Shown piece by piece: positions 9,627 to 63,061 of a stretch of DNA of 64,000 nucleotides. This DNA comes from Octopus sinensis. Its lineage: Eukaryota. Both the position numbers and the translations under genes were made by a program. A model generated the notes under the pieces. That model worked only from the letters and a program-made list of their open reading frames with translations. It was not told where the DNA came from and did no database searches. Within the stretch, counting starts at the first letter, position 1. The number at the start of each line of letters is the position of its first letter. The stretch is taken from NCBI RefSeq assembly GCF_006345805.1, contig NC_042997.1, positions 114,948,001 through 115,012,000 on the forward strand. The letters run 5' to 3'.

Positions 9627-10429
9627 AATGAATTTAACTGTATTTCATTCACAGGGTGTTAAGTTTTACTACAAATACTTTTTGTTCATTTTCTTTTATA
9701 TAAAAATCTCCCAATTTTCTGTCAAATGTCTTGTCCCCACCCCACTCTGTGAAGCTAATATATCAAAAGAACAAAGACATTATTTTTGTTTTTCTAGTTA
9801 TTGAATTTTAGACATTCTGATATTTCTCTTCATATCTTCCACAGAAACCTAGTTATGAGGTTGGTTGGTTGGTATATATAGAATGTATTCATGACTTGGG
9901 TTTTCAAAAATTTGTTGCCATTGTGGATATCATGGCTCTGGGTGTGACATGTTATACTTTGCTTGGCTAATTTTATAGAGAAACTGTCCTACTTCTCACT
10001 TTTGAAGTGAAATAGTTGCTTCAACACTGTTGCAAAATACTCCAAACCCATCATGGCTGTACAATTGACTAGTGATAGAAACCATTCTAAGGCAGACAGT
10101 GGAGCAAGGTGTAGTTCTGTGGTTCACCAACCCCTATTGAAGGCAGCGAGCTGGCAGAAATGTTAGCACGCCGGGCGAAATGCTTTTCTGAGTTCAAAAT
10201 CACCAAAGTTGACTTTGCCTTTCATCCTTCCAGGGTCGATAAATTAAGTACCAGTTGCACACTGGGGTCAATCTAATCGACTGGTCCCCTCCCCAAACAT
10301 TTCGGGCCTTGTGCCTAGAGTAGAAAAGAACTGTTGAATTATCCAACCCATGCCAGCATGGAAATCAGTTTGATGATTGTGGTGATGATGTATCTACCTA
10401 CCTACCTACCTTTCATGCCACACTCCAAG

Positions 10430-11996: not shown

Positions 11997-12404
11997 TATT
12001 TCTTTATTGCCCACAGGGGCTAATCACAGAGGGGACAAACAAAGGGATTAAGTTGATTACATCGATCTCAGTGCATAACTGGTACTTATTTAATTGACCC
12101 TGAAAAGATGAAAGGCAAAGTCGGCCTCGGCGGAATTTGAACTCAGAGTGTAACGGCAGACAAAATACCTATTTCTTTACTGCCCACAAGGGGCTACACA
12201 CAGAGGGGACAAACAAGGACAGACAAACGGATTAAGTCGATTATATCGACCCCAGTGCGTAATTGGTACTTAGTTAATTGACCCCGAAAGGATGAAAGGC
12301 AAAGTTGACCTCAGCGGAATTTGAACTCAGAATGTAGCAGCAGACGAAATACCGCTAAGCATTTTGCCCGGCGTGCTAACATTTCTGCCAGCTCGCCACC
12401 TTTT
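11997..12404 (-). mobile_element. Dimeric family-B SINE nested in a family-C SINE (~11945-12643)
   Basis: One head and two bodies/tails. TSD ATTGGCATATA at 11986-11996 and 12405-12415. Confidence 0.85.
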
Positions 12405-14109: not shown

Positions 14110-14620
14110 ACCTGACTGGCTCCCCAGGCCAGTGGCACCGACGATTGAAGGGTACTCATAAATGGGCTGGTTATGCAACACTGGCATAGGCCATGGCTAT
14201 GATCTCATTTAGCTTTCTGGGTCTTCTCAAGTACAGTATATCTCCAAAAGTCTTTGTCATTTGCCATTACCTCTGTGAAGTCCAATGTTTGAAGGTTGTG
14301 CTTCACCACCTCATCCCAGGTCTTCCTGGGTCTACCTCTTCCACAGCTTCCCTCCACTGTTAGGGTGTGACACTTCTTCACACAGCTGTCTTCATCTGTA
14401 TGCAACACAAATGTCCATACCAGCACAGTTGTCTCTCTTGCACACCACATCTGATGCTTCTTATGTCCAGTTTTTCTCTCAGGGCACTTACTCTGTCGTA
14501 TATGCACACTGACATTACACATCCAGCAATGCATACTAGCTTCATTTTTTTCAAGCCTACGCATGTCCTCTGCAGTCACAGTTCATATTTCACTGCTGTG
14601 TAGCATGGCTGTTCACACAC
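14110..14620 (-). mobile_element. RTE LINE fragment, same family as 61790-63061
   Basis: ORF 14205-14579 contains MTAEDMRRL...GRGRPRKTWDEVVKH, nearly identical to the 62 kb copy. Confidence 0.88.
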
Positions 14621-15570: not shown

Positions 15571-17106
15571 TGCGATGGAGCAGGCAAACAAAAAAAACAG
15601 AATGTAAAAGATGAGAAATGGGTGGTACCCATCGATGGGAAAATTTTGGGGGTTGCTCTTCTGCTGGACAAGGTGGAAGACTTTGTTAATGTTGAGGACA
15701 TTACTTTCTCAATTTTCCATGAATGAAGGACCTCTTGTTTGGATCTGGCTCTGCTTAAACATTATTGGATGTCACTAAACTTGGAAAGAAACTGCTATAA
15801 GTTGGGGTAGAGTTGTAGATAATGAAAGATTGAAGGGTTTTTTGTTTTTTGCGGTGCAGTTAGGGACCACTTAAGAAGTGAGATAATAGCAACAGTAATA
15901 ATTGATCACCTTGGGTTGAACTTATCCACAGGCATATCTGTGTGGTAAGAAGCTTGCTTCCCAACCACATGGTTCTAGGTTCAATCCCATTGTGTGATGC
16001 CTTGGACAAGTGTCTACTATAGCCTCAAGCCAACCAAAGTCTTCTGAGTGAATTTAGCAGACAGAAAGTGAAAGAAGCTCTGTGTGTGTATGTTGGTTTG
16101 TTTATGTCCCCATCATTAGTTTGATAGAGTAAGTACCAGGCCTTAAAGAAAAAAAGTACTGGGGCTGATTCATTTGACTAAAAATTCTTCAAGGCTGTGC
16201 TCCAGCATGGCCAAAGTAAAAGATATGCTTTTCTATGCATGCCTTTGTCATTTCCTTTCTGAGGTTCATCCTACTGAAATCAGCTTTAAAATGTTAGTTA
16301 ATCCTTTTTACTATAGGCACAAGGCCTGAAATTTGATAGGGTGGGGGTGTTGGGGTAGTTGATTACAATGACCTCAGTACTTGACTGGTACTTTATTTCA
16401 TTGACGCTGAAAGGACGAAAGGCAAAAATCGACCTCGGGATTTGAACTCAGAATGTGAAGAAAGATGGAATACCATGAAGCATATTGTCTGGCATGCTAA
16501 TGATACCACCATTTTGCTGCCTTAATAATGGTGGTAATAATAATAATAATAATGATGAGTGACGTATTATAGCTGTCATATAACTAACATTTATCACTCA
16601 TTGATGTAATGTGAACGTAAACTTCTTTTGGAAGCATGCAGATTTTCTTTCCCATTCATACAACACACACTGTCACATGTGCACCCTAACACTCACTCAC
16701 CTCGGCATACCTAGGCATGCATACTCATCTTTGTATTTTCATGTGCAGGCACACACACACACACACACTCACTCTCTCTCTCTCTCTCTCTTATATTCTA
16801 TCAGACCACATTTCCATATACACCCACTCAATACACATATGACGTACATGCTTCTGAATGAAGCTATGCATAATTTTCTCACACAGAATGTAAGTAGCAG
16901 CCACATCCCATCCTAGAGTATAAACTTAGATCTGTTGGCCAACAATTTCCCATGTGACTGAGAGATAGTCTTCAGCTTTATGTAACTATAGCAAGACTGC
17001 TAAATCTACTCTGTTTGATCTTAACAAAAATCTTTGGCAAAATGTAGAAGAGCAATCTGGTCAAACTTGTTTTCTGTGAGTTATGGCTGTAATTTATTTC
17101 GATTAA

Positions 17107-24130: not shown

Positions 24131-25904
24131 GAAGCAGAAAATGGAGAAGTGCTGATTAACAACAGTTGACTTACATCAATTATTTGTTAATTTAATACAA
24201 ATAGACTTCATCCTATCTAACAGGCCCATTGTGCAACACTTTGGGAATGTGTCTTCTACAAAGCCCCTAGGCCAGCTGAACCTTGAATTTGGTAGGCAGA
24301 AAGTGTGTGAAAGCCTGTCGTGCATGTGTTGGAATGCATGCATGCATAGATGTTTGTGTTGTCTTTCCCTACCACCGCTTGACACCAGTACTGGTAACTT
24401 AACAGTTTGGCAAAAGAGATTGATAGAAGTACTGCGGTTCATTGGTTGATCTAAACCCTTCAGGGTAGTACCCCAGCATGGCCATAGTCCAATGACTGAA
24501 ATTAGTCAAGATTTGTTATTGTGATACATTGTATTTAACATTGAGGTGATTCACTTATAAATTAGAACTTCCTGTATTTATGTTCAAAGCCACTATTATT
24601 GACTTCAAATTTTCACAGAAGGCCAGCAATTTCAGGGAAAGGATTCAGTTGATCGCATCAATGCCATTGCTCAGCTGGTATTTATTCTATTGAAGGCAGT
24701 GAGCTGGTAGAAACGTTAGCACGCCGGGCGAAATGCTTAGTGGTATTTCGTCTGCAGTTACGTTCTGAGTTCAAATTTCACCAAGGTTGACTTTGCCTTT
24801 CATCCTTTCGGGGTCGATTAAATAAGTACCAATTACGCACTGGGGTTAAAGTAATCGACTTAATCCCTTTGTCTGTCCTTGTTTGTCCCCTCTACGTTTA
24901 GCCCTTTGTGGGTAGTTTATTCTATCAACCCTGAGAGGACAAAAGGCTAAGTCGACCTTGGCAGAATTTGAACTCCAGATTGTAGAGATTGATGAAATAC
25001 CACTAAGCATTTTTCCTGGTATGTTAACGATTCTGCCAGCTCGTTGCCTTAATAACAGACAATGTATTGATAAGCTTGTGCCATAGATGGTCTCCAATGA
25101 AATTGGTTCAGCTTTACCATGATGCGGTAGTAATTATAATGATTAATTAAATCTTGTATATTATTGTTTTTTACACAGCAACACTTATCATCCCTCGTTT
25201 GTAGCACCAAACATCCTGCATCTTTTTTTGTTCTTTTTAAACCAGTTTCTATTGTTTCTCCAGCATGGCATATCTCTATTCATTTCAGCTTAGCACCATT
25301 TTCTTCTCTGTGAGTCTTGGTATTGTTAGGTCTGGCCTCAATACTGCTTCCCAAGTCTTTGTAGGCCTGACTTTAACCCGAGGCATATCCCCTGTCAACA
25401 ACCAGTAAGTACTTCATCAAAACGGCATGGTTGCCTCTAGCTGGTTGCTAGATACAGCAGCCAAGTTGCTTGCAAATCATATCTTAATGCTTTTTAATTA
25501 AGGACAGGAAACATTAGTGTAGTCCAATGTCCCCTGAAATAAATGGAATGGTTGGTGCTCTTTTACTTGTTTCAGTCATTTGACTGGAGCACCGCATTTA
25601 GTCGAACAATTCGACCCCAGGAATTATTCTTTGTAAGCCTAGTACTTATTCTATCAGTCTCTTTTGCTGAACCGCTAAGTTACAGGGACATAAACACACC
25701 ACCATCTGTTGCCAAGCGATGTTGGTGGGGACAAACATATTCACACACACACATACATATATACAATGGGCTTCTTTCAGTTTCTGTCGACCAAATCCAC
25801 TCACAAGGCTTTGGTCAGCCTGAGGCTATAGTAGAAGACATTTGCCCAAGGTGCCACGCAGTAGGACTGAACCCGGAATCATGTGGTTGGTAAGCAATCT
25901 ACTT

Positions 25905-27783
25905 TATTTCAATGAATTGGCCATACAGGTCTTACATAGAAGCAACTGCAGGCTGGACAAAACACAAGATGAATGAATGACAAAGCAAATAATGAAATTG
26001 GTGAAGGAAGGCAAGCAATGCCTTGCTGTTTCCCAAAAGCATTGTCCTTTTCTTTTCTAACAAATTGAAGTTATAAACCTCTTACTTTAATTCAATTGGA
26101 CTCAAGATCCTTACAAATGAGGCACTAAGCCTCTTGACTTTTTTCATTATTTTCCACCCCACTGGTGCCCGACTAAGCCTCACTCAAGCATATCGATGGT
26201 GCTAAGTCAGGGTGATTCAGCAGGAAGTGGATGGAATGTGTCTTTGGGGAAGGAGTTCATCACCTTGCACAAATCTGTTCCCCACATGACCTCCACAGCT
26301 ACCTGCGGAGGCCAATCAGGGTCCTTTGTACAGGTTAGAACCCCTCCCCTCCAACCTTCTTTGGTAAACTTTTTCATAAACTCTTGAATTGCCCCTTCCT
26401 TGTGGAATAGGATTACAAATTCCTCCTCCATATAGGGCGAGGCCCGTTTCCACTGTCGGTGACACAATTCCCACTAACAGGGTTTCGGGAAAAGCCGGCA
26501 GTGTATTAGTAACTACCAGCAATGCCTTATTTTTATTTTTCTTCTCTTTTACCATGGGAGGGTGCAGTTCTGTTTTGTCTGGAAGATTTTCCTTCCCTCC
26601 CACAGCCTTAGGATCACTCAGTGGGCAACCTTCTTCCTTTTTTGGCTCTTTTTCGAGGAGGTGGAAGCCTCCTTGACCGTCATCTCTCCCTCTGAATGAG
26701 GAATGGGGAGTGTTTCTGCCACTAACTGCTCCAAGACCCTACTCTGATCCTAGGGACAGTTCTTTTTTATGTGACCTAGTTCCAGTCACAGGTGACACTT
26801 GGGAGGAGGCATCCCTCAAGTATCACCAGATACCTGTTACCAGCCATGGTCAGAAAATCTGGGAAGACCAGATTTCTTGTGGCTGATTGGGTCCACAGGG
26901 TCAAAACAGCTTTTGACCCAACCCAATCAGCCACTGGCAACAACTTTACATTTAGCAGCTTGGATCTGCTGCCACCCAGACCCTGGCGGAGAGTGTCTTC
27001 TAACCACTCGGGCTCCATCACAGGTGGCAACCCACAGACCCAAGCTCTTGTCAACTTTTTCCCACAATATGTGGGAAGAAACAGGATTTCCTGGCCCTCC
27101 AAGGGCTGGTTCACAAACCTGCGAGCCTCCTCAGGGGTGTCTAACAGCAACCACACCATTGCATATTTGGCACCCCTGAAAATAAATTTTATGGTTGGCA
27201 GATACTCTGCCAACTCTTTCTCTATCTCAATTTTCTTGAAGACGGTGATGGTGTCGAGCGACTTTGAGTATGTCCTCAACACCACTGTCCTCTCTTCAGA
27301 GTCTTTCACCCACTCTTTGGGTGGGACAATCTCCCACTCAAACACAGTGTCTAGTTTCTTCGCCATGTTCTTTAGAAGAAAAAAAATTCCAAAGAAAGTC
27401 GGAAAAGGAGACGAAGGAAGAAGGAAAGAAAACAGTTCAAGAACACAGTGACCACAATTTTCCGGCCAACTGGTACTCCAAATAGCAACAGGAACACAGC
27501 TCCACAATTTTTGGAGGTGGGATACACCCCCTAAACAACACACTTCTCACTACTAAGTGAGACAGTAAGCGCAACTACAGGCAGACAAATGCCTGGAATC
27601 CAGTAGAGATTACTTGTTTGAAAAAAAATAAACACAAACAACAAAACCCCACTGAATCCCCAAAAAACAAATGCCTTACCTTGTAGTTGTGCCTCACTAG
27701 TTCAATAATTCATGATGCTGGTGTGCAGCATGATGCACGCCAGCATCATGACTCCTCCCAGTGTGAAGGAAACACTGACACAT
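25905..27783 (-). mobile_element. ORF1/gag-only retroelement (HAL1-like), frameshifted, inserted into a family-A SINE
   Basis: TSD GCAA(T/G)CTACTT at 25894-25904 and 27784-27794 splits the SINE head. AATAAA lies at the 3' end. ORF runs from ATG 27366 (MAKKLDTV) through a decayed zinc knuckle (~26750-26790) to stop 26207. No RT. Confidence 0.78.
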
Positions 27784-29410: not shown

Positions 29411-29826
29411 TATTTCTGTACTACCCACAAGGAGCTAAACATAGAGGGGACAAACAAGGACAGACAAAGGGATTAAGTCAATTACATCGACTCCAGTGTG
29501 AAACTGGTACTTTATTTATCGACCCCGAAAGGATGAAAGGCAAAGTTGACCTCAGCGGAATTTGAACTCAGAACGTAATGGCAGACGAAATACCTATTTC
29601 TTTACTACCCACAAGGGGCTGAACACAGAGAGGACAAACAAAGACAGACAAACTGATTAAATCGATTATATCGACCCCAGTGCGCAACTGGTACTTAATT
29701 TATCGACCCCAAAAGGATGAAAGGCAAAGTCGACCTCGGCGGAATTTGAACTCAGAACGTAGCACCAAAAGAAATACCGCTAAGCATTTTGCCCGGCGCG
29801 CTAACGTTTCTGCCAGCTTGCCGCCT
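29411..29826 (-). mobile_element. Dimeric family-B SINE
   Basis: TSD TATAGATAACAAATATA on both flanks, with the same internal junction as the 12 kb copy. Confidence 0.88.
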
Positions 29827-32439: not shown

Positions 32440-32876
32440 AGTTTTATTTTTATAGCGTGCTTTCACTTCACTACCGAGCGCAGCTCTGTGTGCCTTGGGT
32501 ATGTGCTGTGATTTGTTGTGATGCTCTGATGGTTATTGTATGGAAAGTGTTCTGCGTAGGATGTGTGCAGTGCCTAGTAGTGCAATTTTCTGTATGTTAT
32601 ATGTGTTTGTAAGTCCTGGTGTTTTTGTTATGTATTTGTCTGAATATTTTTTTATCATGCCTAATGCACCTACTATGATAGGAATTGTTTCTGTTTTCAG
32701 GTTCCACATTCTAGTTACCTCTATTTCCAGGTCTTTGTATTTTGAGAGTTTCTCCATTTCTTTTAGAGACACGTTGTCATCTGCCGGTATTGATACATCA
32801 ATTAGAAAGCATTTTTTTTCTTCATGATCTCTGACAACTATATCTGGTCTGTTGGCCTTAATTTCTCTATCTGTGT

Positions 32877-32880
<4 letters not shown>
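32440..32880 (-). mobile_element. 3' fragment of an R4/Dong-type non-LTR retrotransposon (restriction-like endonuclease domain)
   Basis: Open frame IHTDREIKANRPDIVVRDHEEKKCFLIDVSIP...KLSKYKDL...IIVGALG (PD..D..K..KY motif), stop at 32533. Flanked by (ATT)n on both sides. Confidence 0.88.
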
Positions 32881-32923
<43 letters not shown>

Positions 32924-34102: not shown

Positions 34103-34336
34103 TATTTCTTTACTACCCACAAGGGGCTAAACACAGAGGGGACAAACAAGGACAGACACACGGATTAAGTTGATTACATCGACCCCAGTGCATAACTGGT
34201 ACTTAATTTATCCACCCCGAAAGGATGAAAGGCAAAGTCGACCTCGGCGGAATTTGAACTCAGAACGTAACGGCAAACGAAATACTGCTAAGCATTTCGC
34301 CTGGCCTGCTAACGTTTCTGCCAGCTCGCTGCCTTC
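34103..34336 (-). mobile_element. tRNA-derived SINE family B monomer inserted in a family-A tail
   Basis: 14-bp TSD GTAGAATAAGTACC at 34089-34102 and 34337-34350. B-box GAGTTCAAATTCC. Central GTCGACTTTGCCTTTCATCC domain resembling the Meta-type SINE domain. Confidence 0.9.
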
Positions 34337-36237: not shown

Positions 36238-37146
36238 CTTTTCTGCTCTAGGCACAAGACCTGAAATTTTTGGGGAGGTGGGGGCAGTTGATTAGATTGA
36301 CCCCAGTACACAACTGGTACTTAATTTATCGACCCTGAAAGGATGAAAGACAAAGTTGACCTCGATGGAATTTGAACTCAGAACGTAAAGACAGACGAAT
36401 ACCACTGAGCATTTCACCCGGTGTGCTAACATTTCTGCCAGCTCACCACCTTACCACTAAATATAATAATCTGTTTTACTAAAGGCACAAGGCCTGAAAT
36501 TTAGGGAGAGGGGACCAGTCGATTACATTGAATCCAGTGTTTCACTGGTTCTTAATTTATCAAGCCCAAGAGGATGAGAGGCAAAGCCAACTTTTGCAGA
36601 ATTTGAACTCAGAATGTAAAGACAGATGAAATACCGCTAAGCATTTCCCCTGGCGTGCTAACGTTTCTGCTAGCTCACCGCTTTAGTACGTATGTTAATA
36701 TTCTTTTCTGCTCTAGGCACAAGGCCTGAAATTTTTGAGGAGAGGGCTAGTCGATTAGATTGACCCCAGTATGCAACTGGTACTTAATTTATCGACTCTG
36801 AAAGGATGAGAGGCAAAGTTGACCTCAGCTGAATTTGAACTCAGAATGTAAAGACAGACGAAATACCGCTGATCATTTCACCTGGTGTGCTAATGCTTCT
36901 GCCAGCTCACTGCCTTGCCACTAAATATAATAATCTGTTTTACTAAAGGCATAAGGCCTGAAATTTAGACAAAGGGGACCAGTTGATAACATTGAATCCA
37001 GTGTTTCACTGGTTCTTAATTTATCAATCCCGAAAGGATGAAAGGCAAAGCCGATATCGGCGGAATTTGAACTCAGAATATAAAGACAGATGAAATACTG
37101 CTTAGCATTTTGCCTGGTGTGCTAACATTTCTGCCAGCTCGCTGTC
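36238..37146 (-). repeat. Head-to-tail array of four family-B SINEs (ABAB, ~464-bp period)
   Basis: The linker CCACTAAATATAATAATCTGTTTTACTAAAGGCA recurs at ~36454 and ~36918. A single flanking direct repeat TTGTTTTTCTTAAATATT encloses the array. Confidence 0.85.
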
Positions 37147-37494: not shown

Positions 37495-38062
37495 GAGTAC
37501 AGGTCTTCTTGAGTACAGCAAGGCCCAGGCATCTTGGTCTTTTGTCATCTCGCCTGAAAGGCTCAATGTCTATTTCTTTACTACCCACAAGGGGCTAAAC
37601 ATAGAGTGGACAAACAAGGACAGACAAACGGATTAAGTCGATTATATTGACCCCATTGCGTAACTGGTACTTAATTTATCGACCCTGAAAGGATGAAAGG
37701 CAAAGTCGACCTTGGAGGAATTTGAACTCAGAACGTAACGGCAGATGAAATACTGCTAAGCATTTCACCCAGCGTTCTAGCATTTCTGCCAGCTCGCCTC
37801 AGTATACTGAGGTCATTCTTCAGTACCCCATTCCATGTCTTCCTGGGTCTCCCACTTCCACATGTTCCTTCTACTTTGAGAGATTGGCACTTCTTTATGG
37901 AACTGTTGGCAACCTTCCACATCACACGACCAAACCAGCACAGTCTTCTCTTTCGTACACTGAATCTAATTCCTCTCATTATTAATTTCCCTCTCAGAAT
38001 ACATCAGCATTCTGTCGAACATGTACACTTACATTACACACCCAGCGGAGCATGCCAGCCTC
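37495..38062 (-). mobile_element. Degenerate RTE LINE fragment interrupted by a family-B SINE (~37571-37798)
   Basis: RRLCWFGRV and GSGRPRKTW motifs. Confidence 0.78.
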
Positions 38063-38572: not shown

Positions 38573-38960
38573 TATTTCTTTATTGCCCACAAGGGGTTAA
38601 ACATAGAGGGGACAAACAAGGACAGACAAAGGGATTAAATCGATTACATTGACCCCAGTGCATAACTGGTACTTATTTAATTGACCCCCAAAAAATGAAA
38701 GGTAAAGTTGACCTCGGCAGACAAAATACCTATTTCTTTACTACCCACAAGGGGCTAAACACAGAGGGGGACAAACAAGGACAGACAACTGGATTAAGGC
38801 GATTATATCCACCCCAGTGCGTAACTGGTACTTAATTTATCGACCCTGAAAGGATGAAAGGCAAAGTCGACCTTGGTGGAATTTGAACTCAGAATGTAGT
38901 GGCAGACAAAATACCGTTAAGCATTTCACTGGTGTGTGAATGATTCTGCCAGCTTGATTC
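38573..38960 (-). mobile_element. Dimeric family-B SINE with a small internal deletion
   Basis: TSD TGGC(A/C)ACAGTCTAAT, and the same junction AAATACC|TATTTCTTTAC. Confidence 0.8.
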
Positions 38961-41129: not shown

Positions 41130-41665
41130 TAGAACATTGACCTCCTGGAAACTGTTCAGAGATGTGCAACCAAGCAAATACTCTCCATCAGGCATCTACC
41201 ATACTCTAAACGCCTTGCTTTTCTGGGCATAAATACATTGAAGCTCCAACATTTGGCAACTGACTTGGTAAACACCCACAAAATTATTAACCATTGTACC
41301 AACAACCACCTTGAACACCTTTTTGAGCTCCATGTGTCTAACACATGTGGGCATGCCTACAAAGTCAGAAAACAGCACAGCTCCCATGACATTCAGAAAC
41401 ATTTTTTCACACTCAGAGTTGCTGAAGCATGGAACAAACAATCTGCATCAGTTGTTAGTTGTGAAGACGTTGCTTCCTTTAAAACCTCCATGCTTCCTGA
41501 AATTCGCTAACACTACACCTGATACCCTCCTCTCCATACGCATGCACACATGTATATTATGACTCATACACTGTTCACTTTCCTGTCTTTTGTACATAAT
41601 TCTATGTATTACAAATGCACCTTTGATGAGTTGTAGTGCACCTGAGCACTATACACAATAATTTC
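41130..41665 (+). mobile_element. CR1-clade LINE 3' fragment
   Basis: IDLLETVQRCATK...LPYSKRL...NTCGHAYKV...FFTLRVAEAWN...SFK motif set, followed by an (ATT)n tail. A near-identical shorter copy lies at ~45620-45825. Confidence 0.82.
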
Positions 41666-46089: not shown

Positions 46090-46320
46090 CTGTTGGATGA
46101 GTTTGTCGTGAAGATCATCAAGTCAACCTTCCTTTAAAAAGGGAGGGAAAGCTTCGCTTTTTGGTGGCCTTGGTGAAACAGATTGTGTAGGGGTCAAAGC
46201 TGAAAGGATTGAGAGCAGACATTTTTCTCTTCAGTCAAGCCTCTATTGAATTTTTGAAGCTCCACCTGAAAAGAAAAGGGAGGATGGAGTGGGAAGTATT
46301 CTTCAACTGTGAATTCATCT
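46090..46320 (+). mobile_element. Possible degenerate L1/Tx1-type ORF2 C-terminal fragment
   Basis: FLVALVKQIV*GSKLKGLRADIFL...EFLKLHLKRK resembles the [LI]xxxK.xIW.xR region that follows the Tx1 ORF2 zinc finger. Recognised by eye only. Confidence 0.4.
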
Positions 46321-48480: not shown

Positions 48481-49478
48481 AAGGGCAAGAGAAAAAGAAG
48501 AAAGGGAGAGAGAAAGAAAGAAAGAAAAAGAGAGAGAGAAAGAAAGAAAGAAAGAAAGGGAGAGAGACTGTGTGAGTATGTGGTGGTCACTTTGGTTGAG
48601 GGCTACTCAAACTGGCATGAAATAAATCGTTGATAAAATAAGATCAAAAACTGAAACAACAATATTAAATATTATTAAAAGGGAAAACATTTTACTCCGA
48701 GTATTTTTCCTACATCCACCTAAGGTGGTATTCCGACAGTAATCCTTCGTTAGTAACGTTTTTTTCCCCCTTTTCCTTTTTTTTTTTTTTAGCTGTAGGC
48801 GACTTAGGAAAATAAAGCTACATTTCAAAATTTTTATTATCGAATATTCTTGTAAGAGGTAAAATTCTAATTAATTAAAGACCGAAAATGAGTTGATAAT
48901 TAAATTACATGTAAGAAAATGCTTCCTTTTTCTAGACAGGCTGATTTTTTTGATTTTTTAATTGCAGCCTTTCAAATATTATTTTTCTGCACAAGGATTG
49001 ATTAAATGCTTAACATGGTCCCTTTCGAATGATAAGTATATCCCTATATTACATTATCCTGACCGTAATTGTTATACAGAATTGGTAAAGAAGAATCCCT
49101 GTAAGTTAGTGACGAGCTAAAGGGAAATAACTGCTATAATTTTTTTAACTGTAAATACTATCCGTCATTTTATGATGTTCTTGGGGAAAAAAAAATCTTT
49201 TTGACAATTCTCTTAGAATCTTACGTTCCAAATTTGTATGAAATCCTATTGTAACTGCATTTAAAACCGAAGTTCCCAATTATTATAAACCCAAACTGGA
49301 ATACCAACTTTACGAGGTTTTAATCGACTAAAAATACAGCAGTCTACAATACAAACAAAGATTGCTAAATTGTAAGCAAAACCAAACTTCAACGCAATAA
49401 CGATTTTATGTAACGAGTTGCTAGTCTCGACTAACTAAAACCAACACTGAACACGTCATGCCACAAACAGAACAGAAC

Positions 49479-51116
49479 GATTTTTTTATTACCCATAAAT
49501 GGCCCACAAAGAGGGACATATATCACATTGGGGACATACAACAATTGCAAAAAATAAAATAAAATGAAACGGATGATATAATGAAAGATGGAAAGATGTA
49601 AAAATGAAAATGGTGTTACTTGCCCCCTCAAGTAACATCACTTGCTTCCTTTCCTCTGTTTTCCACTATGTTTAAGCCATACCTCTTTTTCAGTTCTTTA
49701 AATTCGATAACCTGTGGAAGCATTTCCTTGTCAAAGTCAATCTTCCACAGTTCATACTCCCCCTTGTGCCTCTCTACTTCCATCCTTTGCTGTTCCGTTA
49801 ATAACAGCACCACACCTTCCACTCCATCCTCTGCCTCTACATCAACATCAACCGTGTTCTCCCATTCAATTGCCTTTTCAAACAGGCCCTCATCGTATAT
49901 TATACAAGCAAAACAGCTAATGGGAGGGGAAATTTGTGAGTCATTGTGTGAATCTGATCTTTTCTTTTGTTTTTGTGATGGAGGGGAATGGGAAGGCTTA
50001 GTGTCTGCAGGGCGAGGGTGGGACAAAGAAGGTATGGGTGGGCTTTGGGTAGTTGTTGGTGGAAGTTCTGTGTGTATCAGACTTGTCTTTTCCTCTTCCT
50101 TCTCTTTCTTTTTCTGGTATTTTCCCATTCTTCCCCTTTTTCTGGAACCATTTCTTCCTCTTCTTGTCCTTCCTGGGGTTCTCTTGTGTCTTCTCCTTAT
50201 GGTCTTCTTGTATTTCCTCCACTCTTTTATCTCGTGGAGGGCATTTCGCTCTTATGTGGCCCTTCTGGCCACATTTAAAACAGTGAGTTATTCTGCCCTC
50301 CACCCTTACATTCATTATGGTTTCGTTTACAGTCACCATTTCCACCATTTCTTCTATTGCCTCATTGGAACCTTGAATTATCCTGTTCAAAATTTGGCCT
50401 TTCCCAATTCATGCTTTCCGTCTTTGTGGCCTGGTGCACCGCTATTTTGTCCTCGGTTTCAGCTAAGACAACAGCCGCTATCCAGGCCACATCTATCTCT
50501 GGTGGAATTCCTTCTACCCTTATCTGAGATGTTCTCTGTCCCAGGTACGTAGGTAGAAGTACTAACTCACTTAGTGGTGTTGCCGCGTGCTTTTCCACCA
50601 TGTTTTCATTTATGAATATATCTTCAACTTCTCCAAATATCGACCCTCTGCCAAGATATGTTATTTCTTGCCAAATTGGCCTCAGCACCTTCTTTATTTG
50701 CTCTGTTGTCATGTGGTCAATTTTTCCCTTCTTAATCAAGTAGGTCTTGTATGTCACCGTTCTTCCTTTCATTATTTTTGTCGTTTCATGTGGTGGTGGT
50801 GATGGGGGGGGGGTTACTTGCATGTTGTAACCATCCCAACTTAATAATTTCTTGAATTTATCTATTTCGTTCTCCACATTGTCATCTGATTCTCCGGCGA
50901 CATCTGCGAACTTCCTCTTTCTTCCTTCCAATTCCTTGCCCGTAACATCAATAGACCTTAACAGTTCTTCAGATGTTGACATCTCTGACCCGCTTAGGTC
51001 TGAGTAAAATAAATTCCTTTTGCTAGCCATCACTAACTCTGGAAGAGAGAAAACATGACCAAATTGCTGCAAAACAGCACACAGCAATCAAAACTTCACA
51101 AAAGCAATTCAACAGG
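49479..51116 (-). mobile_element. Second ORF1/gag-only retroelement, with CCHC zinc knuckle CFKCGQKGHIRAKC and two frameshifts
   Basis: ATG at 51030 (MASKRN), ORF pieces 51030-50362, 50390-49998 and 50128-49628. AATAAA ~140 nt after the stop. A 15-bp direct repeat CAAACAGAACAGAAC lies at 49464-49478 and 51117-51131. The protein aligns with the 26-27 kb element. Confidence 0.8.
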
Positions 51117-51294
51117 CAAACAGAACAGAACTCCGTGCATATAACAACAATCAAGACAATCAAAATCACGTAATCAAAACTAAAATCACAAAACCAATTT
51201 GAAACTGAAATCCCCATTTGAAATATCAAGACACTGACATTATTTAAAAAGAACTTCATAGTTTCAAAAGGTAAATAACAACAACAACAACAAT

Positions 51295-61789: not shown

Positions 61790-63061
61790 AGAAACTGTAT
61801 AAGCTATGGACACATAAGAGGTGCAGCAATGTCAAAAGAAGGCTAACTGGGAAGATAGTTTTTGTATGTGGCAGATGCTCAGGAACAATAAACACTGGAA
61901 ATGCTCTGAGACCAACTTCTGTCACTTTCCAGGGAGAAAAACTAGAAATAGTTGATAGCTTCCGTTACCTGGGTGACCAAGTCAGTAGCGGGGGTGGGTA
62001 TGCTGAAAGTGTAACTCCTAGAGTAAGAATAGCTTGGGCAAAGTTCAGAGAGCTCTTACCTCTGCTGGTGACAAAAGGCCTCTCGCTCAGAGCAAAAGGC
62101 AGACTGTATGACGCGTGTGTACGAACAGCCATGCTACATGGCAGTGAAACATGGGCCATGACTGCTGAGGATATGCGTAAGCTCGCAAGAAATGAAGCCA
62201 GTATGCTCCGATGGATGTGTAATGTCTGTTCATACTCGACAGAGTGTAAGTACCTTGAGAGAAAAGCTGGACTTAAGAAGCATCAGATGTGGTGTGCAAG
62301 AGAGACGTTTGCGCTGGTATGGTCATGTGGCGAGAATGGATGAAGATAGTTGTGTGAAAAAGTGCCACACCCTAGCGGCTGAGGGAACCTGTGGAAGAGG
62401 CAGACCCAGGAAAACCTGGGACGAGGTGGTGAAGCACAACCTTCGAACTTTAGGTCTCACTGAGGAAATGACTAGAGACCGAGACCTCTGGAAGTATGCT
62501 GTGTGTGAGAAGACCCGGCAGGACAAGTGAGACCATAACCCGTGGCTTTCTACACGGGATGTAGCCAGTCCACTTATGCATACCTTCCCTTCTTGGGACA
62601 CAAAACTCTACTTGTGAAGACCTGTTGAGGCAAGTGAGAATCAGCATCAAAATCGATCAATGGAAATTGCAGCTGAGATACCAGTGCCGGTGGCACGTAG
62701 AGAACCATCTGAACGTGGTCGTTGCCAGCGCCGCCCCGACTGCCCTCCGTGCTGGTGGCACGTAAAAAGCACCATCCGTTCGTGGCCGTTGCCAGCCCTG
62801 CCTAGCACCCGTGCCGGTGGCACATAAAAGGCACCATCTGATTGTGGCCGTTTGCCAGACTCGTCTGGCACCAGTGCCGGTGGCACGTAAAAAGCACCCA
62901 CTACACTCAAGGAGTGGTTGGCATTAGGAAGGGCATCCAGCCGTAGAAACATTGCCAGATCAGACTGGGCCTGGTGCAGCCTTCTGGCTTCCCAGACCCC
63001 AGTTGAACCGTCCAACCCATGCTAGCATGGAAAGCAGACGTTAAACGATGATGATGATGAT
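61790..63061 (+). mobile_element. 5'-truncated RTE-clade LINE: ORF C-terminus (one frameshift near 62226) plus 3'UTR ending in (GAT)n
   Basis: Encodes EIVDSFRYLG, AMLHGSETW, RRLRWYGHVARM and GRGRPRKTW, with stop at 62530. The 3'UTR ends GCATGGAAAGCAGACGTTAAAC(GAT)n, the terminus of the window's most abundant repeat. Confidence 0.92.

Follow-up and report, generated by a model that had tools for sequence, protein, structure and literature searches.

A 64,000-nucleotide stretch of the Octopus sinensis genome (NCBI RefSeq assembly GCF_006345805.1, contig NC_042997.1, positions 114,948,001 to 115,012,000; hereafter the window) carries on its minus strand a 1,638-bp element without long terminal repeats (a non-LTR element), at 49479-51116, that encodes only open reading frame 1 (ORF1) and ends in a tail that is also the terminus of long interspersed nuclear elements (LINEs) and of a short interspersed nuclear element (SINE) called SINE-B. 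We consider it highly probable that this copy belongs to an old ORF1-only lineage and that ORF1-only elements and SINE-B are copied in trans by the ORF2 protein (ORF2p) of the LINEs, which would likely recognise the common tail, with the borrowed endonuclease setting the insertion site. Mobilisation in trans is suggested, at the level of sequence, by the tail, the target-site duplications and the insertion sites that the three classes share.

The window element lies between 15-bp direct repeats (3' copy at 49464-49478, 5' copy at 51117-51131; this and all following parts of the element are on the minus strand). The repeat that it has split, ~280 bp long and with short inverted ends, resembles a miniature inverted-repeat transposable element (MITE); the right part occupies 49278-49478 and the left part 51117-51191. 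All 40 scored candidates for this target repeat match it at 85-100%. The 15-mer is present only once in the uninterrupted paralogous copies, and the direct repeats at the window element therefore represent a true target duplication. ORF1 consists of a frameshift-broken N-terminal piece (50365-51030; 31-34% identity to LINE ORF1), a middle piece (50001-50408) with a CCHC zinc knuckle at 50238-50282 that matches Pfam PF00098 with 21.3 bits (cut-off 20.8), and a C-terminal domain typical of the ORF1-only lineage (49631-49942). A T-rich 3' untranslated region (UTR) of ~150 nt follows (49479-49627), the end of which is the shared tail, without poly(A), at 49479-49525. The 5' end is ~35 nt shorter than in copies at another target. 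Related copies are 66-90% identical (among 40 scored of 720 candidates), and no reverse transcriptase (RT) was found between ORF1 and the 3' end of ORF1-only elements in any locus read. Longer versions of the target repeat occur at two loci (L179, L178), in one of which (L179) a nearby transposase-like frame looks hAT-like by eye.

The preliminary description of the window had proposed that a gag-only element and SINE-B share a 3' end through which one autonomous LINE mobilises both. The tail indeed lies at 49479-49525, and in a local-alignment scan of the window the best matches after the self-match were the SINE-B tails (scores 31-40). Aligned with each other, the window and SINE tails scored 38, against a mean of 15.8 (standard deviation 3.2) for dinucleotide shuffles, none of 5,000 of which reached the observed value; the LINE tail scored 51 with the window tail and 64 with the SINE tail, each again reached by 0 of 5,000 shuffles. 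When the genome (2.72 Gb) was searched with the tail and the content upstream was classified, ORF1-only elements, RT-bearing LINEs and SINEs were all found to carry it, over ~45 nt in each class. Tail-bearing loci scored 42-124, compared with a null 95th percentile of 31. A 31-nt pattern of the ORF1-only type had 12 exact matches (control, 0), at eight ORF1-only elements, three ORF2-bearing elements and one LINE-type UTR; a 35-nt SINE-B pattern had 40,837 (control, 0). The proposal had been staked on a similarity better than that of shuffled controls and on RT-encoding elements that end in the tail, and both were found.

The partner LINEs came into view upstream of an ORF1-only copy (L016/L031), where a 5'-truncated ORF2 fragment has the same tail and the same target. 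A genome search with this fragment gave 41 matches (40 scored of 4,225 candidates). In 26 of 30 ORF2-bearing loci the tail lies 216-266 nt past ORF2, the other loci being interrupted, partly deleted or mis-anchored. One copy (L098) retains an open frame of 1,128 amino acids with RVT_1, Exo_endo_phos and zf-RVT above the Pfam cut-off, and in two near-complete LINEs (L090, L091) ORF1 contains a CCHC knuckle. The length from one duplication to the other is 5.07-5.23 kb in five copies, and duplications of at least 11 bp were found at 11 of the 14 LINE loci reported (18 tried). Among solved structures the RT is nearest to human L1 ORF2p (E 2.5e-68; R2, 2e-24), and its best homolog is from Argonauta hians (61%). 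The partner LINE belongs to the L1 group: it encodes an APE-type endonuclease and, after it, an RT nearest to that of L1. No named Tx1 reference was among the RT homologs, and the PDB search gave L1 and R2 only; the LINE is Tx1-type on its architecture and target preference rather than on a tree with references. A CCHC-knuckle ORF1 and a zf-RVT in ORF2, which we take to be typical Tx1 features, are both present. A Tx1-like preference for target sequences is seen in clusters of 3' flanks; 16 of 33 LINE tails were singletons. The idea of a single autonomous LINE thus holds in that RT-encoding L1/Tx1-type LINEs end in the tail, but these are several subfamilies that differ in the targets they prefer rather than a single element.

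The candidate partner named in the preliminary description, a Tx1-like scrap at ~46.2 kb, is a distant relic of an L1/Tx1-type ORF2 C-terminus (46134-46316, plus strand; 32% over 63 amino acids, E 0.001). With homology this weak and no tail match nearby, it was rejected as a partner copy. Elsewhere, one LINE copy (L050/L096, at 31.00 Mb of G000:C9) lies just upstream of an apparent histone H3 coding start, as judged by eye. Unrelated retroelements were noted alongside at L031 (1-3016), L035 and L099 (264-2530); by eye again, these comprise long RT-like frames resembling Penelope and a pol-like frame resembling Ty3/Gypsy.

The third class, SINE-B, is short (~230 nt), non-coding and of high copy number, with a LINE-like tail and duplications. 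A B-box-like motif, GTTCAAATTC, was noted by eye in its head; ARAGORN found no transfer RNA (tRNA) in the window, and Rfam gave no tRNA match. Within the window SINE-B occurs at 11998-12400 (minus; a full unit plus a unit from near position 51), 24695-24916 (plus; final tail bases missing), 29412-29825 (minus; a full unit plus a unit from near position 51, with an 18-bp duplication), 34104-34333 (minus; full unit, 16-bp duplication), 37572-37798 (minus; full unit, duplication looked for and not found) and 38574-38954 (minus; two units). Direct repeats of 10-18 bp flank five of the six window units tested, which, with the 15-bp repeat of the ORF1-only element and the poly(A) counts given below, bears out the earlier claim of flanking repeats without a real poly(A) tail. 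SINE-B may be an already described octopus SINE, with the published OK, OR1 and OR2 as candidates, and it may resemble the Meta domain (MetaSINE).

Two further features of SINE-B were observed. The bases after its tails are AGGTA in 34 of 73 cases, ATATA in nine and AAGAA in six, and 26 of the 73 tails lead straight into a further SINE-B, joining its head at either of two fixed points (in the window, for example, at 11998-12400 and 29412-29825). Read-through from sources nested in SINE heads, or insertion guided by microhomology, could explain these joints. In addition, a sister SINE at 36286-37142 (minus), 10142-10282 (plus) and 16357-16502 (minus) has the SINE-B head and body (positions 1-166) with a different tail, and includes four tandem units that recur every 232 bp; this SINE seems to have exchanged its tail for that of a different LINE partner.

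Clustering of 3' flanks resolved many small target groups, some of which are shared between classes. One MITE-like site holds nine ORF1-only tails at eight places and LINEs at three places (overlapping loci merged), and at L294 and L295 ORF1-only and LINE copies are adjacent at this site. A site in the SINE-B head near position 19 gave 56 pattern matches, of which the 30 read comprise 16 ORF1-only elements, 13 SINEs and one unclassified copy; the end of a LINE (L293) and a LINE with an internal deletion (L290) also lie there, both from hand-picked loci. Another set of 30 pattern matches contained nine LINEs, 15 SINEs, four ORF1-only elements and two others. At a second SINE-head site, the pattern for LINE and ORF1-only tails had a single match, classed as SINE. 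A single endonuclease acting at each site would be the best explanation for the use of identical sites by the three classes. Five ORF1-only copies (L120, L189, L197, L208 and L219) were also seen at a second site of the MITE-like repeat, in the opposite orientation.

ORF1-only units also form arrays. We studied six, chosen by the spacing of matches rather than at random: C2 (a LINE end and nine ORF1-only units), C1 at another target (LINE, three ORF1-only units, LINE), C24 (eight units), C8600 (seven units and a deleted LINE), C5 (six units) and C3 (four units). They are interstitial and have their starting point in the head of a SINE or in another repeat. The family that builds them nests within the main ORF1-only clade as a sister family and is distinct from that of the window element, which forms shorter tandems. 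Such arrays might stem from tandem duplication at the DNA level or from assembly error instead of serial insertion, and the 13 young units compared do differ little (0.3-3.4% within and 0.6-4.0% between arrays), differences that sequencing error could partly explain. We nevertheless find this origin unlikely: different families and LINEs are mixed within arrays (C1, C2, C8600), the median mismatch within arrays (1.2%) is about that between them (1.4%), and the head-to-tail joint, like the run-on into the SINE head, is present in two DNA runs from different studies. The young array family (L289:1250-3100) was represented by 3,838 and 8,163 contigs in two DNA runs; these figures do not give a copy number, and they hint that copies far outnumber those from the pattern search. 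Contigs of this family are also present in two runs presumed to be RNA, which is no evidence of transcription.

Several observations weigh against copying in trans through a recognised tail. The tail can form a hairpin with a 4-bp stem, 89% paired, and a variable loop, and the preliminary description had looked to covariation in such a stem-loop; we did not obtain it, since covariation was not above that of shuffles (score, 295/500; both-side cells, 18/500), a separate permutation test was not significant (1,031/5,000) and RNAalifold predicted no structure in the tail alignment. That alignment held 58 sequences once ten of 92 loci had been set aside, for an absent or interrupted tail or as duplicates, together with near-duplicates, and several of its short-loop rows are one column off register. 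With AATAAA in it, the tail may owe part of its conservation to 3'-end processing. The first 30 matches read at the SINE-head site included no LINE, the LINE cases there coming from loci picked afterwards, and the window copy's own target was seen with two ORF1-only copies and no LINE. Only nine of 30 genomic SINE copies have a clear 10-18-bp repeat at the expected distance. Finally, sampling was partial: scoring in the DNA searches covered just 40 candidates each time, out of 720 and 4,225.

The hairpin result and the AATAAA motif, together with an RT of the L1 group, would suit a tail that is common by descent and whose main role is to signal 3'-end formation or polyadenylation, with RT recognition relaxed as in mammalian L1. 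This is distinctly unlikely in light of what the tails look like. No A-run of at least 12 occurs in 74 ORF1-only, 33 LINE and 73 SINE tails (180 in all, some loci overlapping), the longest runs being nine, seven and five, respectively. Moreover, SINE-B, which as a putative tRNA-type SINE should need no RNA polymerase II signal, retains ~45 nt of the tail; many SINE copies have AGTAAA instead of AATAAA; and the similarity extends ~30 nt upstream of that motif.

The ORF1-only elements have a history of their own. Their ORF1 is 31-45% identical to that of the LINEs (core E 1e-45), and the C-terminal domain of ~100 amino acids has 94 genomic matches at 26-85% identity, self-match excluded. Two sets of ORF1-only loci carry their own tail in 29 of 32 and 29 of 39 cases. 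Among 27 copies, the ratio of nonsynonymous to synonymous divergence (dN/dS) of the ORF1 core starts at 0.64 in the closest pairs and drops to 0.45, 0.36, 0.29 and 0.21 as dS rises (0.21-0.36 where dS > 0.35), and that of the C-terminal domain falls from 0.89 to 0.27; these pairs are not independent. A neutral simulation through the same pipeline gave 0.68-0.81. Single copies thus decay, whereas the source elements were under purifying selection.

Since no ORF1 homolog was found outside the genome at E 1e-5, the two ORF1 trees have no outgroup and were midpoint-rooted. In both unrooted trees, the ORF1s followed by ORF2 group together, outside the main ORF1-only clade (ultrafast bootstrap 96 in the first; SH-like approximate likelihood ratio test ~93 in the second); in the second tree, removal of sequences >93% identical left 62 of 76 rows, of which L144_m170 is a LINE. 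A few ORF1-only or unlabelled elements fall on the LINE side of the second tree (two from L081, L083, L292 and one L291 unit), an indication that half-elements also arose separately and more recently. The last unit of L291 and L292 represent a ~2-kb ORF1-only family with its ORF1 on the LINE side, and L290 (G000:C8600) is an internally deleted LINE.

The selection on ORF1 could have acted in an unsampled or extinct autonomous LINE that carried this ORF1 type ahead of ORF2. Scoring covered just a portion of the candidates in the searches, and 72 loci were read for the 94 matches of the C-terminal domain, which leaves some room for such an element. None of these 72 loci has an ORF2 between the domain and the tail, and the scenario needs many separate deletions, each leaving a similar UTR of 100-210 nt, across subfamilies with dS > 1; we regard it as very unlikely. 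It is highly improbable that the ORF1-only elements are simply recent, dead internal deletions of LINEs with an ORF1 devoid of any role: the deleted LINE L290, the few elements on the LINE side of the tree and the frameshifts or stops in every window-family copy read fit that idea, which may hold for those minor lineages, but for the main clade it is largely refuted by the divergence from LINE ORF1, the dN/dS below neutral, the absence of any ORF2-followed ORF1 within the clade and the widespread C-terminal domain.

This domain has a predicted fold (pLDDT 85) with the order beta-alpha-beta-beta-alpha-beta, which is that of RNA recognition motif (RRM) and ferredoxin folds. A fold search returned only ferredoxin-like folds, weakly (best Z 4.8), showing neither a relative nor a new fold. 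Two matches were found among 1.84 billion representative sequences, the named homolog being from Octopus vulgaris. No Pfam match went beyond E 0.0028 (PIN-like DDX60, 3 of 32 members), and clusters of 5'-3' exonuclease N-termini (Atlas 0.84-0.86, low recognition) were not taken up. In profile comparisons the domain was unmatched in the C-termini of the tested LINE ORF1 and of the array family.

For copying in trans by the LINEs, we propose the following course. By analogy with the stringent type of eel UnaL2/UnaSINE, LINE ORF2p would prime reverse transcription on the tail and could so copy three kinds of RNA, those of the LINE, the ORF1-only element and the SINE. The endonuclease of the borrowed subfamily would set the target, so that ORF1-only and SINE copies land at the sites of that subfamily, and each insertion, by duplicating its target, would leave a site for the next and build arrays. 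The ORF1-only element may have retained its ORF1 protein (ORF1p) to coat its own RNA and ease the entry of that RNA into ORF2p particles, a role put forward earlier for HeT-A and HAL1. One might go further and imagine a closed three-way system, a tentative extension that we rate as rather doubtful. In it, the LINE would amplify the SINE; the SINE head would serve as landing pad for LINEs, ORF1-only elements and SINEs; ORF1p with its extra RRM-like domain would be a lasting co-factor assembling with Tx1 ORF2p; and transcription of the interstitial arrays would be read-through that begins in an upstream unit or at a SINE promoter. If true, this would be a non-telomeric counterpart of HeT-A/TART and, in effect, a LINE with two genes on separate RNAs.

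The window holds further retroelement remnants. A second, more distant ORF1 relic (26779-27546, minus) is 24-31% identical to both ORF1 types and has a broken zinc knuckle; the local-alignment scan of the window found no shared tail near it. Relics of other retroelement C-termini were noted by eye at 61792-62530 (plus), 14205-14582 (minus), 32533-32922 (minus) and 41133-41510 (plus), for which Pfam gave no family at cut-off.

All three tiers occur in one genome, at several target sites and with young copies, which makes three questions testable: how an ORF1-only element benefits from its own protein, whether the RTs of the L1 group can be tail-specific in animals, and how HeT-A-like arrays arise off telomeres. 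The analysis also indicates a likely engine for one very large octopus SINE family. In Octopus vulgaris, SINEs are reported to make up ~11.6% of the genome, the majority of the SINE families with recent activity being unclassified; the parts consulted list 893 SINE families without classification and 13 L1-Tx1 families active in recent times, and contain no partner analysis (Bonar 2026, PMC13282606).

Several known systems offer themselves for comparison. Mammalian HAL1 has an L1-type ORF1 and a poly(A) end. HeT-A of Drosophila is telomeric and forms mixed head-to-tail arrays with TART and TAHRE. Like HAL1, the octopus half-element encodes ORF1 only and has its partner in the L1 group. Unlike HAL1, it carries a CCHC knuckle and an additional C-terminal domain in its ORF1, which is only 31-45% identical to its partner's; it lacks poly(A), ends in a common sequence tail and is target-specific; and the L1 transposase_22 family was not among the Pfam hits of the octopus ORF1s. 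It is therefore not a HAL1 in the strict sense of a mammalian L1 derivative, as HAL1 is described in the passages seen (non-autonomous, ORF1p only, derived from the L1 group; PMC5753468, PMC5786205). It does fit the wider class of ORF1-present non-autonomous LINEs, in which the part consulted of Kojima 2018 (PMC5786205) lists HeT-A, HAL1 and Ag-Sponge: it codes for ORF1 only, its ORF1 and 3' end are homologous to those of LINEs, and it has been amplified as a unit with duplications, probably in trans. Ag-Sponge, of the CR1 clade, resembles it in kind and differs in clade, and the list as seen names the Jockey, L1 and CR1 clades only (PMC5786205).

With HeT-A, the octopus element shares an ORF1-only design beside autonomous partners and the formation of mixed head-to-tail arrays; unlike HeT-A, of the Jockey clade, its arrays are interstitial and its partner is of the L1 group. 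The octopus SINE is linked to Tx1-type LINEs by common targets, as is SINEU of crocodilians, which is tied to Tx1-Mar by a common preference for a DNA transposon, with tandem insertions around the duplication; the Tx1 clade prefers target sequences that are often DNA transposons or repeats (Kojima 2015, PMC4494074, in the sections consulted). Those sections give SINEU a small nuclear RNA (snRNA) head and poly(A), unlike SINE-B, and a Tx1 link by target and not by tail, and they mention no ORF1-only partner (PMC4494074). A 3' tail common to SINE-B and LINE is instead what stringent SINE/LINE pairs have. Such partners are rare in the L1 group: in the portion seen of Ohshima 2013 (PMC3747384), only three of the SINEs in 58 SINE/LINE pairs have L1-clade tails, in plants and a green alga, and the pair table does not mention Tx1. 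Maize ZmSINE2/3 share with LINE1-1_ZM a 3' tail whose hairpin has compensatory changes (PMC3747384, same portion), unlike the octopus tail with its non-significant covariation. No description of the octopus three-part system was found in the literature searched, outside of which lay Repbase, Dfam, SINEBase, the O. vulgaris repeat library, subscription papers and some supplements. The octopus system is a variation on known types, namely HAL1, HeT-A and SINEU/Tx1-Mar.
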